A stretch of DNA of 7,551 bases, taken from the IMG/VR virus record IMGVR_UViG_2565956711_000002, positions 1 to 7,551 of that record. One strand, 5' to 3'. Source of the stretch: a virus. Its lineage: Monodnaviria; Loebvirae; Hofneiviricota; Faserviricetes; Tubulavirales; Inoviridae. The notes beneath the pieces are model-generated. The model made no database searches. It was not told the origin of the DNA and worked only from the letters and a program-made list of their open reading frames with translations. The translations under genes were made by a program, and so were the position numbers. Each line of letters opens with the position of its first letter. Position 1 is the stretch's first letter. Positions 4,123-6,104 of this stretch are shown here, in pieces.

Positions 4123-4138
4123 AATAACACCTTATATT

Positions 4139-5254
4139 CTATGCAACTCGTAAATGAGACGGTTTTACATACCACGATGGAATAACACAATCAGACACTT
4201 TAATCTCTCGCGTTTGCTTGACAACAACAGGAGAGAATTTCGAAACATTACATTTTTGCGCAATGTCAATACCAATCTTGCGGAGTCTTGCCCGATGAAT
4301 ACGCACTTGATTTTTACTTAAATCAAAAATATGACCATGAAACCATTGGATCGCGTACATAGCTGTAGTATTAGCTGCCCGTGTAGTTTCAACTATTCCA
4401 CGGGTAATAAGATGTTCACTAATAGTTTCAAAATCCATAGCATTCACCGATAACTTTTCATCAAGCGCCAGAAAATCAGAATGTAACTTATTTAACACAG
4501 AATAATCAGATAACCCCCAAAAACCTAGAGAGTGTTTTTGAATAAAACGAGACTTCAATTTTTGTTCAAATCTGACTATTCCATTTTCCTTACAATAATC
4601 AATCACACTAACAATATAATTAAACTCTTTTGACTGCTCAGAGAATTTATTTTTTATTTTTAATAAACTATGTAACTCAATCTCATGTGACTTATTATAT
4701 ACAGTCGGATAAATAAGATTAACATTCCCTTTTTTAGACAACCAGTCAACAGATTTACCGTTTGAATGCAACCGTGGTACACTATTCCTATAGGGTTGAG
4801 TCGAAAGCCCTGAAATATAATCATCCTCATTCCCTTTGCCAACAGATTTATTAGATGTTATGTGAAGCTCTTTAATTAACGCCCCATCACTGACCATATG
4901 AGCTTTTTCGGTTTCTTTAGACTGACCGGGCATTAAACGAGTGCATTTTGTAAAAAAAGGCAATTTAAGATCAAGAAGGATCTTATTGAAAACCATAACG
5001 CAAGCATCAACGGTAGGTAAGCCAAATAAATTATCAAGCCGCCCCCACCGCGAAGGGTTGCCCGTCATTTTTAGAACAGATCCACGGATAGAAATAGAAA
5101 CGACATCACAGAAAGATCCCCGGTGCTGAAAAGTTGGCTGAGAAAGCGCACTAACCTCACCACTTTCAAGATGAATACGCTGGTAAGCAACATCCGAGAG
5201 AATAGGAAGTTGAAAGCCGAAATCCTGTTCAATACTTAACCAGTCGAAGAACAT
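4139..5254 (-). CDS. Rolling-circle replication initiation protein, filamentous-phage gII (CRI) family
   Basis: 371 aa. Segment GIVRFEQKLKSRFIQKHSLGF resembles Ff pII GLVRFEARIKTRYLKSFGLP. First gene of the minus-strand operon, with a strong promoter-like element upstream. Gene is visibly AT-rich. Confidence 0.85.
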   Translation of the reverse strand: MFFDWLSIEQDFGFQLPILSDVAYQRIHLESGEVSALSQPTFQHRGSFCDVVSISIRGSVLKMTGNPSRWGRLDNLFGLPTVDACVMVFNKILLDLKLPFFTKCTRLMPGQSKETEKAHMVSDGALIKELHITSNKSVGKGNEDDYISGLSTQPYRNSVPRLHSNGKSVDWLSKKGNVNLIYPTVYNKSHEIELHSLLKIKNKFSEQSKEFNYIVSVIDYCKENGIVRFEQKLKSRFIQKHSLGFWGLSDYSVLNKLHSDFLALDEKLSVNAMDFETISEHLITRGIVETTRAANTTAMYAIQWFHGHIFDLSKNQVRIHRARLRKIGIDIAQKCNVSKFSPVVVKQTREIKVSDCVIPSWYVKPSHLRVA

Positions 5255-5295
5255 AGCGCCCTTTCTTAGATTCTCAGAAATTATTTCATGGTGCT

Positions 5296-5324
5296 TTTAT
5301 AAGACCTGAGAAACTAAGTGTCAA
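5296..5324 (-). promoter_or_regulatory. Putative sigma70 promoter for rep
   Basis: On the minus strand: -35 TTGACA (plus coordinates 5319-5324), 17-nt spacer, -10 TATAAA (plus coordinates 5296-5301). Predicted transcription start is roughly 35 nt upstream of the rep ATG at 5254. Confidence 0.45.
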
Positions 5325-5350
5325 CATTTCTAAGAATTTAGAGATATGAT
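5322..5350 (+). promoter_or_regulatory. Putative divergent promoter for the 62-aa ORF; its -35 overlaps the rep -35
   Basis: -35 TCAACA (5322-5327), 17-nt spacer, -10 TATGAT (5345-5350). GAGG Shine-Dalgarno at 5367-5370, ATG at 5378. The 10-mer ACATTTCTAA (5325-5334) overlaps the -35 and spacer. Confidence 0.35.
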
Positions 5351-5377
5351 GCAAGGCTAGCAGAATGAGGAAAGAGC

Positions 5378-5566
5378 ATGCCTACAAAGCACATAAACGA
5401 TGTTCAATGGCGAAAAATAGAGAAAGAAACCGTTAGAGCGGTATCAACCCTAGCTGTTCCAGTTAAAGATACCAAAATGCTCGAATGGATAATCGCCAAA
5501 GGGCTAGAGACGATCACAGAAGACGACTACCGCAAGTTCCTGAAGACAGAAAGCAAAAAAAAATAA
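5378..5566 (+). CDS. Hypothetical small protein (62 aa), candidate phage regulator
   Basis: Good Shine-Dalgarno (GAGG, 7-nt spacing) and ATG. Transcribed divergently from rep, the position taken by repressors in lysogenic filamentous phages. Charged protein with a lysine-rich C-terminus; no recognisable motif. Confidence 0.5.
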   Translation: MPTKHINDVQWRKIEKETVRAVSTLAVPVKDTKMLEWIIAKGLETITEDDYRKFLKTESKKK

Positions 5567-5581
5567 GCGAGCAGGAAGAAA

Positions 5582-5636
5582 ATACGGGAAACCGTACTAA
5601 AGTTCGGGTGTCACAGAACCCCGAACCGCTTCGCGG
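5582..5636. other. Cluster of three short GC-rich stem-loops between the two small ORFs
   Basis: TACGG-GAAA-CCGTA (5583-5596); GTTCGGG-11 nt-CCCGAAC (5602-5626); CCGC-TTC-GCGG (5626-5636). No U-run follows on either strand, so this is not a classic intrinsic terminator. Confidence 0.3.
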
Positions 5637-5758
5637 CGAAAAAACGAACAACAGCAGAGCTTGCGAAATCGGAATTAAGATAAGCTGGACGTCAAACGAT
5701 TAAACAAAAATACGCCATTATGCAAAGATCAAATGACACACTCTAAAAGGTATAGGTA

Positions 5759-6025
5759 ATGAACAAAGACCAGATAATACAGGTACTTAATGAAACAGAG
5801 AATGACAGCCCCGTAGCAAGAGCAGAATTAGCAAGATTCCTCGTAAAAACAATCTACAATTTTGTAAAAATGGAGAGGCCAGAAGGTGAAGGTCTGGACG
5901 GACGTGATGGCCCAGAAAGGCGCAGCATGGGAAAAATTGTAGATGCGGCAGAAAACCACTACTTTAACATGATAAAAGAAAGCCATGAAAAACAGGGAAT
6001 TGGAAGAAGAAACCCTGAGGAATGA
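5759..6025 (+). CDS. Hypothetical acidic protein (88 aa), accessory gene next to the att site
   Basis: ATG at 5759 with AAAGG about 8 nt upstream; stop TGA at 6023-6025, 6 nt before the dif-like site. Highly charged, soluble-looking composition; no family recognised. Confidence 0.45.
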   Translation: MNKDQIIQVLNETENDSPVARAELARFLVKTIYNFVKMERPEGEGLDGRDGPERRSMGKIVDAAENHYFNMIKESHEKQGIGRRNPEE

Positions 6026-6031
6026 CGCCCT

Positions 6032-6058
6032 AATGCGCATAATGACGTTATGCTAAAG
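6032..6058 (+). other. dif-like XerC/XerD recombination site (prophage att junction)
   Basis: AATGCGCATAA-TGACG-TTATGCTAAAG compared with E. coli dif GGTGCGCATAA-TGTATA-TTATGTTAAAT (recalled): each arm matches at 9 of 11 positions, with a divergent, apparently 5-nt, central region. Located next to hipA, where chromosomal dif lies in E. coli K-12 (recalled). Confidence 0.7.
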
Positions 6059-6059
6059 A

Positions 6060-6096
6060 GGCAGCTGCGGGGAGAAATTCTCGCAGCTGCCTTTTT
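6060..6096 (+). terminator. Intrinsic terminator (10-bp GC-rich stem plus T5)
   Basis: GGCAGCTGCG (6060-6069) pairs with CGCAGCTGCC (6082-6091) around a 12-nt loop, followed by TTTTT (6092-6096). Lies downstream of the 88-aa ORF but on the far side of the dif-like site. Confidence 0.6.
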
Positions 6097-6104
6097 GACA
6101 TATG

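Follow-up and report, generated by a model that had tools for sequence, protein, structure and literature searches.

A candidate control region of divergent promoters and TCTWAGA repeats between the replication gene and a small probable repressor gene of a filamentous prophage

Organization of the prophage

The window, by which we mean the whole 7,551-nucleotide stretch of DNA analysed here, is a dif-integrated filamentous prophage adjoining hipA, as indicated by its gene content and a dif-like site. The product of the leading minus-strand gene, rep, contains G2P N- and C-terminal domains (Pfam G2P_X_C, E 1.7e-24, and Phage_CRI) and matches PHROG 702, 'replication protein', with an E value of 1.5e-104; judged from these domains, it is the rolling-circle replication initiator of the prophage. 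Minus-strand genes besides rep encode a ssDNA-binding protein, an 89-aa protein, the major coat protein, a 627-aa adsorption-type protein, a DUF2523 protein and a Zot-family protein (as identified from ORFs, Pfam and PHROG). A gene for a 62-aa protein diverges from rep across a short spacer (Table 1), and the right side of the window contains, in order, an 88-aa ORF, a dif-like sequence at approximately 6031-6057, and an E. coli-type hipA gene on the minus strand.

The prophage is present in only 3 of 5,426 complete E. coli genomes. The lysogens E. coli G5 and NCTC9040 show 99.6% identity to this DNA, and in E. coli PEC148 (L001, 1-10174) it occurs as a tandem array beside hipA. The inter-copy junction in PEC148 shows a secretin (GspD-like) gene and an attP region, both of which lie outside the window. 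Because a search of phage genomes at near-identity yielded a 44-nt match to the intergenic region of If1 and nothing else, the prophage does not correspond to a named phage. The match lies in the gap between the 62-aa and 88-aa ORFs, where 44 nt are 95.6% identical to the If1 'major intergenic region'. It is the If1-like part (core 5598-5641) of a hairpin-containing element at 5585-5647, which recurs at ~90% identity in several hundred E. coli records, among them 427 places on plasmids. The If1-like element may be a single-strand initiation signal or a complementary-strand origin signal; its predicted DNA fold is unremarkable (z -1.6), and the one plasmid context inspected was uninformative. 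We also note that CTTATATTCTATG, at 4131-4143, is the 13-bp palindrome CTTAGANTCTAAG with two mismatches, spanning the rep stop codon ahead of the ssDNA-binding protein gene; the resemblance may well be due to chance.

Table 1. Positions in the window of the genes, predicted promoter elements and repeat units at the rep-proximal locus.
Feature	Position	Strand	Sequence or length	Remarks
rep	4139-5254	minus	371 aa	ORF; ATG at 5254-5252; first gene of minus-strand operon
62-aa gene	5378-5566	plus	62 aa	ORF; divergent from rep
Spacer between rep and 62-aa gene	5255-5377		123 nt
88-aa ORF	5759-6025	plus	88 aa	ORF; 192-nt gap after 62-aa ORF
rep promoter, -35	5324 to 5319	minus	TTGACA	6/6; GTCAA invariant in alignment A1
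rep promoter, -10	5301 to 5296	minus	TATAAA	5/6, without the usual final T; TTTATA invariant in A1
62-aa gene promoter, -35-like	5321-5326	plus	TCAACA	4/6
62-aa gene promoter, -10	5345-5350	plus	TATGAT	5/6; 18 nt after TCAACA; invariant in A1
Putative rep Shine-Dalgarno	5259-5264	minus	AAAGGG	4 nt before ATG; abuts unit U1; inferred by reading the sequence
62-aa gene Shine-Dalgarno	5367-5370	plus	GAGG	7 nt before ATG; read from sequence
U1	5264-5270		TCTTAGA	0 mismatches; O1
U2	5272-5278		TCTCAGA	1 mismatch; O1
U3	5298-5304		TATAAGA	1 mismatch; O2
U4	5305-5311		CCTGAGA	2 mismatches; O2
U5	5313-5319		ACTAAGT	2 mismatches; O2
U6	5329-5335		TCTAAGA	0 mismatches; O3
U7	5336-5342		ATTTAGA	2 mismatches; O3
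O1	5264-5278			in predicted rep 5'UTR, about +12 to +26
O2	5298-5319			fills rep promoter spacer; overlaps rep -10
O3	5329-5342			within plus-strand promoter spacer

Two divergent promoters with overlapping -35 hexamers

The rep promoter, TTGACA followed by a 17-nt spacer and TATAAA, is found exactly as, and where, an earlier note on this DNA had placed it, and with 11/12 positions it matches the sigma-70 consensus better than any other site in the 7.5-kb window. The opposing plus-strand promoter is a 9/12 match. The same note had described a plus-strand TCAACA overlapping the rep -35 hexamer, and both the element and the overlap stand, although its position is 5321-5326 and not 5322-5327; the two -35 hexamers thus have 4 bp in common (5321-5324). 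Both promoters have the 16-18 bp separation of -35 and -10 hexamers upstream of their gene, a geometry that is kept in relatives, and transcription starts are predicted at ~5289 on the minus strand and ~5357 on the plus strand.

A match of 11/12 arises in 0.3% of dinucleotide-shuffled spacers, and one accompanied by a promoter of at least 9/12 on the opposite strand in 0.1%. Promoter-like sites across the whole window are nonetheless fewer than in shuffled sequence in a promoter scan, so that consensus matching alone is weak evidence; moreover, the scan demands a T at the last -10 position and hence does not list the rep promoter. Weak points of the pair are that the rep -10 is missing this highly conserved final T and that the plus-strand -35 matches at just 4/6 positions, and at 3/6 in many relatives. 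The decisive support for a control region is comparative and does not come from within-window statistics. The spacer contains no LexA box (CTGT-N8-ACAG, with up to one mismatch allowed), and an RNA element in the spacer was considered and ruled out, a search of Rfam with 5000-6300 having returned chance matches only.

A 7-bp repeat unit in three clusters

An ungapped profile anchored on GTCAA identifies a 7-bp pseudo-palindromic unit, TCTWAGA, seven copies of which (U1-U7) are arranged in three clusters, O1, O2 and O3 (Table 1). The units are 7-8 bp apart and occur in both orientations. Exact TCTWAGA occurs twice in the window (U1 and U6), both times within the spacer; the inverted 7-mer repeat by itself is not significant (p about 0.09). 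The O2 cluster of the window is unusually degenerate for the family, with one or two mismatches in each unit, and is one of two degenerate examples among 24 loci.

These observations redraw the operators as they had been proposed. The earlier note correctly reported TCTTAGA at 5264-5270, the inverted partner of which is TCTAAGA at 5329-5335, and its view that these are operator-type elements is borne out, for they are the two perfect copies of a unit that is enriched 52-fold upstream of homologous genes. It had also put forward a 10-mer as an operator element; the 10-mer is present, as ACATTTCTAA, at 5324-5333 rather than 5325-5334, but it is not the repeated unit, which is TCTWAGA, and its first bases belong to the -35 overlap. 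Nor do the operators merely flank the region as had been supposed: the units occupy the spacers of both promoters as well as the rep 5'UTR, and O2, the best-conserved cluster of the family, was absent from the earlier description. That interpretation is in sum partly supported, being largely right and incompletely delimited. The 10-mer ACATTTCTAA is found three times in the window against 0.04 expected, with additional copies at 6106 and 6131; these two were considered as distal operators and rejected, since they lie in an att-region remnant also found in the prophage-free strain E26.

Conservation of the layout among gammaproteobacterial loci

In a distant BLAST comparison, some E. coli prophages match the window DNA only from 5264/5265 to 5566, an interval comprising the spacer and the 62-aa gene; within the spacer, conservation runs from about 5263 up to the 62-aa ATG. 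The rep genes of these prophages are unrelated to that of the window, encoding a 349-aa II/X-type protein (L005, L007) or a 666-aa replication endonuclease (L006), and in L006 the regulator is the sole annotated gene between rep and hipA. In an alignment of these spacers (A1), neither -10 hexamer varies, nor does the GTCAA core of the two overlapping -35 hexamers, and the aligned spacers also hold perfect palindromes, such as CTTAGATTCTAAG.

A broader scan of the family used one genome per species and gave 35 loci, with 26 non-redundant upstream regions; the profile covers 24 loci. The loci are from Xenorhabdus, Pseudomonas, Aeromonas, Pseudoalteromonas, Kangiella, Neptuniibacter, Colwellia, Rodentibacter, Haemophilus, Methylobacter and others, and all of the encoded proteins begin with MPTKHI. 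At about 30 loci in many gammaproteobacterial genera the layout is kept with no other shared DNA homology. An unbiased hexamer count identifies CTTAGA/TCTAAG as the top-enriched hexamer upstream of the gene, 52-fold and in 23 of the 26 loci, with 53 copies in 3.8 kb of upstream regions versus 33 in 124 kb of flanking sequence; TTGACA/TGTCAA is present in 16 of the 26 upstream regions.

The divergent, back-to-back arrangement of promoters with overlapping -35 hexamers, which the earlier note had recognized in the window, is a geometry shared by approximately 20 of the 26 non-redundant loci. On the rep strand these loci have TTGAC(A/T), 17-18 nt and a TAnnnT-like hexamer, and on the plus strand TCAA(C/G)N, 17-18 nt and then TATGAT, TATAAT or TAGAAT, with TACGAT also seen; the plus-strand -35 position is occupied in relatives by TCAACA, TCAAGA or TCAAGG. 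The repeat units are placed with similar regularity relative to the G of GTCAA, one being centred 12 nt from it in 22 of 24 loci (O2) and another 45-46 nt from it in 19 of 24 (O1). An O3-side unit is present in some loci, and TCTAAG/TTAGA elements lie between GTCAA and the plus-strand -10 in many relatives.

A recognizable rep gene diverges from the regulator gene in 17 loci, with at least two rep types represented in the family scan. Overall, the TCTWAGA layout pairs with at least three unrelated rep genes and always accompanies the 62-aa gene family. The close relatives L001, H28 and H29 are nearly identical and contribute no independent evidence.

The 88-aa protein was considered as a co-regulator and rejected: the ORF is not conserved with the module and has no family match other than PHROG 37184. 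The loci have no second plus-strand gene in common, and some lack one altogether.

Longer proteins of 130-320 aa starting with an MPTKHIDD domain are encoded in Erwinia, Pantoea, Cedecea, S. diarizonae, Rahnella and Enterobacter (L038, L040-L044). Some of them have weak P-loop NTPase-like matches in their C-terminal regions, and their genes are preceded by CTTAGAAA in three to six tandem 8-bp copies, or by similar TTAGAA repeats.

The repeats change with the regulator

Prophages that share the rep gene of the window and have another first plus-strand gene contain wholly different spacers with repeats of their own. In L003 (3255-3449) a 162-aa HTH_3 protein is encoded in the regulator slot and the repeats are GATAC/GTATC, while L002 (1671-1847) and L004 (3255-3422) combine the same rep with PHROG 2503 proteins and GCATGC repeats. 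The association of one rep with different regulators and different spacers indicates that the repeats follow the regulator gene and not rep, and the sequence comparison points to an exchange of cassettes at the rep start codon.

Variation within the regulator family offers a second view of this relationship. The N-terminus varies in a minority of 135 representatives at 50% identity, and in three viral contigs the proteins begin with MPT[VL]R[IL]DD and the spacers contain TGTCACA/TGTGACA palindromes (for example ATGTCACATGTGACAT) and no TCTAAG. These palindromes lie in the interval separating the regulator gene from a divergent G2P-like rep, at positions equivalent to those of the TCTWAGA units, whereas the MP[TS]KHI genes of the same viral collection again have TCTAAG arrays. 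The same layout with another repeat and another protein subtype is what cognate repressor-operator pairs look like at the level of sequence. A search for MPSQHI-type loci gave MPTKHI and MPSKHI genes only.

An exception is presented by the E. coli prophages L008 and L009 (2501-2689 in each), which carry a 62-aa protein identical to that of L006 as a downstream gene. Both encode the 666-aa replication endonuclease, and neither has a TCTAAG array in the rep spacer; a PHROG 2503 gene is present in each, with GCATGC repeats in L009 and GTTAACA in L008. That an identical protein is held in the absence of such an array shows that the 62-aa protein can persist without local operators. The L008 and L009 copies could be orphan regulators, possibly acting in trans on other phages. 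In L008 an unannotated, ribbon-helix-helix (RHH)-looking ORF at 1978-2160 also lies upstream of the 62-aa gene, in addition to the PHROG 2503 gene.

The 62-aa protein

The 62-aa protein matches PHROG 5219 over its full length (residues 1-62, E 5.1e-26), a group without an assigned function, and several UniRef entries are labelled 'Repressor' with no stated basis. The MPTKHI family occurs in hundreds of filamentous phages; it comprises 591 clusters at 90% identity and is distributed among Enterobacterales, Aeromonas, Pseudomonas, Pasteurellaceae and marine genera. The exact 62-aa protein is encoded on 352 contigs across Enterobacterales, some of them ~7.7 kb in length, which is the size expected of a replicative form and suggests that episomal forms occur.

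Sequence searches place the protein in no characterized family. Apart from a chance match, Pfam returned no family at E ≤ 0.1, and there was no helix-turn-helix (HTH) match; comparison of the 62-aa family with Arc and CopG by hhalign gave a probability of 0.1%, and thus no link; a sequence search of the PDB gave no match; and tblastn against phage records gave two unannotated inovirus matches only. We found no description of the MPTKHI protein family in the literature. A fold search with the predicted structure, however, points to RHH proteins, the predicted fold being RHH-like with a third helix. The fold is RHH-like in the model, not proven, and in such a structure the DNA would be read by the strand that the invariant N-terminal MPTKHI forms. 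We therefore regard the family as probable ribbon-helix-helix repressors that were previously uncharacterized.

A proposed mechanism and its alternatives

Sequence elements that are conserved at fixed geometry and linked exclusively to one gene family, the covariation of repeat and protein subtype, and the similarity of fold together argue for a repressor-operator module, for which the comparative support from sequence is solid. We consider it likely that 5255-5377 is a control region in which divergent promoters are combined with TCTWAGA operators for a 62-aa repressor that limits rep. What we infer from the sequence is that the protein binds, in which direction it regulates, where transcription starts and that the promoters compete. 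Dimers of the 62-aa protein would bind TCTWAGA units arrayed 7-8 bp apart, and those at O2, in the rep promoter spacer and -10, and at O1, in the 5'UTR beside the ribosome-binding site, would block rep transcription and in this way limit phage replication and superinfection. Dimers at O3, in the spacer of the regulator's own promoter, would provide autoregulation of the repressor. Since the -35 hexamers overlap, occupancy of O2 may also free the regulator promoter from competition with the stronger rep promoter.

The earlier note had spoken of a genetic switch, a term that may overstate what could be plain negative feedback, and one that is weakened by the absence of a LexA box or inducer pathway and of an antagonist or second conserved regulator. 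A more ambitious reading, which we hold tentatively and think rather unlikely, is that the MPTKHI/TCTWAGA cassette is a horizontally mobile immunity module grafted onto inoviruses with unrelated rep genes. It might even constitute a one-protein bistable switch, in which O2 shuts off rep and frees the repressor's own promoter while O3 caps its expression, and the orphans of L008 and L009 would silence in trans the rep of rivals, whether co-resident or incoming.

Several other explanations account for parts of these data. Overlapping -35 hexamers are conserved across the family, and competition is plausible because the rep -35 is consensus and the other -35 weak; control might then be exerted mainly by promoter competition, RNA polymerase at either promoter shutting it out from the other as the earlier note suggested, with the small protein an activator or anti-repressor instead of a repressor of rep. 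The best-conserved unit nevertheless lies between the rep -35 and -10, and another just past the predicted start, both of which are repression-type positions; competition and repression can moreover coexist, and we consider competition as the principal control improbable. We give still less credence to the proposal that the arrays are bound by a host nucleoid or regulatory protein, or by Rep at origin- or iteron-like sites, and that the 62-aa protein acts elsewhere. It would accommodate the identical protein that L008 and L009 keep without a local array, and the repeats are AT-rich like many host-factor sites. The arrays, however, accompany at least three unrelated rep types in hosts from Pasteurellaceae to Pseudomonas, the spacer is without a LexA box, and the If1-like origin-region element is located elsewhere, at 5598-5641. 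A host factor or Rep as the binder is also disfavoured because other repeats take their place when the regulator gene is replaced or is of another N-terminal subtype.

The partition adaptors ParG and omega are RHH proteins that recognize arrays of 7-8-bp repeats, and the protein-repeat pair could accordingly be a centromere-like or plasmid-maintenance module of the replicative form, with any effect on transcription being secondary. The ~7.7 kb contigs suggestive of episomal forms and the weak P-loop NTPase-like C-terminal regions of some longer family members would fit such a role, but no conserved ParA-type partner gene lies beside the 62-aa gene, and the units are in register with promoter hexamers, for which a pure centromere has no need; we rate this slightly below binding by another protein. 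Shared ancestry without function, with the spacer simply being conserved along with the adjacent gene, appears the least credible explanation. It would suffice for the close relatives L001, H28 and H29, whereas distant loci can be aligned only at the units and promoter hexamers and yet retain fixed spacing, and another protein subtype comes with another repeat sequence in an unaltered layout.

Relation to known phage and plasmid systems

Temperate filamentous phages influence the virulence and fitness of Vibrio, Pseudomonas, Yersinia and E. coli, and to our knowledge the control of their lysogeny and replication is understood for only a few HTH repressors (RstR, Pf4r and FpsR). The closest functional parallel is the rstR/ig-2/rstA region of CTXphi, in which a 138-bp spacer contains adjacent divergent promoters and three repressor-binding sites (PMC4762005). 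As in the prophage described here, with its spacer of 123 bp, the repressor gene diverges from rep in a dif-integrating filamentous phage, and regulator and spacer are exchangeable as a cassette and vary among phages that are otherwise alike; the three repressor-binding sites of CTXphi may be compared with the three TCTWAGA clusters that, by sequence, stand in register with promoter hexamers. The two systems differ in that RstR is a Cro/CI-type HTH protein, while the 62-aa protein has no HTH signature and models as a ribbon-helix-helix, and in that CTXphi has a LexA box for SOS control of the rep promoter and the spacer here has none. The best reading by analogy is that the module works like RstR/ig-2 or like Arc/Mnt of P22; the lack of an HTH regulator places it outside the RstR family.

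YpfPhi and CUS-1 likewise integrate at dif and have an RstR homologue, a presumed regulator, in the slot divergent from rep (PMC4266046, PMC4762005). These phages and SW1, which are enterobacterial or marine, are filamentous like the present prophage and also have a regulator gene that diverges from rep, but their regulators are RstR-like or Cro/CI-like HTH proteins, and in SW1 the spacer measures 621 bp and the 5'UTRs are long and overlap. Among the relatives of the window itself, the 162-aa HTH gene of L003 fills the same slot and is accompanied by different repeats.

Parallels among RHH repressors concern the operators and the protein. In the immI region of P22, the back-to-back, overlapping promoters Pant and Pmnt compete for RNA polymerase, and repression of one stimulates the other. 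Arc and Mnt are, as proposed here, small RHH repressors with operator boxes placed within promoter elements, and the Arc operator consists of inverted TAGA boxes read by the small repressor (PMC2724298). The target of Arc, however, is an antirepressor gene in a tailed phage and not a replication gene, its boxes are spaced by 5 bp within an element of 13 bp as opposed to 7-bp units at 7-8-bp spacing, and Arc has no detectable sequence similarity to the 62-aa protein. CopG of pMV158 is a 45-aa RHH repressor of the rolling-circle repB gene, cooperative dimers of which cover the promoter and exclude RNA polymerase (PMC2724298). It offers a precedent for a small RHH-type repressor directed at a rolling-circle rep gene, although copG and repB share a single promoter and transcript whereas the genes here are divergent with two promoters, and there is no detectable sequence similarity between the proteins. 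RHH operators in general are arrays of short repeats in direct and/or inverted orientation (PMC2724298), each repeat taking up one dimer, a description that would also suit the 7-bp units in both orientations seen here and the tandem arrays of 8-bp CTTAGAAA in distant members. The N-terminal RHH domain of TraM (pED208) has 7-9% sequence identity to the 62-aa protein, at which level we do not claim family membership; TraM, moreover, serves the conjugation relaxosome as an accessory factor and has a tetramerisation domain.

The arrangement as such, with operators for a repressor lying across divergent promoters, is well known, and it is the protein family that is the undescribed part. Sequence alone defines here a second widespread regulator family, together with its operator unit, promoter layout and a natural specificity variant, and yields predictions as to superinfection immunity among the inoviruses of Salmonella, Citrobacter, Serratia, Enterobacter and E. 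coli. It may further help to annotate the 'hypothetical' first gene of many inovirus genomes, and the operator array may serve to mark the end of such prophages that is nearest to rep.

The attachment region beside hipA

The dif-like site that follows the 88-aa ORF, at 6031-6057, reads AATGCGCATAA-TGACG-TTATGCTAAAG. The canonical E. coli dif has no match within three mismatches anywhere in the window, and the junction was read by alignment. In PEC148 (L001, 2262-2380) a second, inverted dif-like site is present ~60 nt further on (…CACATTATGCGCACC), a pairing that recalls the folded attP of CTXphi. In the window this second site is replaced (6058-6150) by sequence that is also found in the prophage-free strain E26; the interval 6104-6146 contains two copies of the direct repeat GACATTTCTAA(C/T)GAGCC, which includes ACATTTCTAA and belongs to the att-region remnant. 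In E. coli E26 (L046, 142-1494), a SIR2-family gene abuts the same dif-like/att remnant beside hipA with no prophage present, which suggests that another element has used the hipA-side att site.
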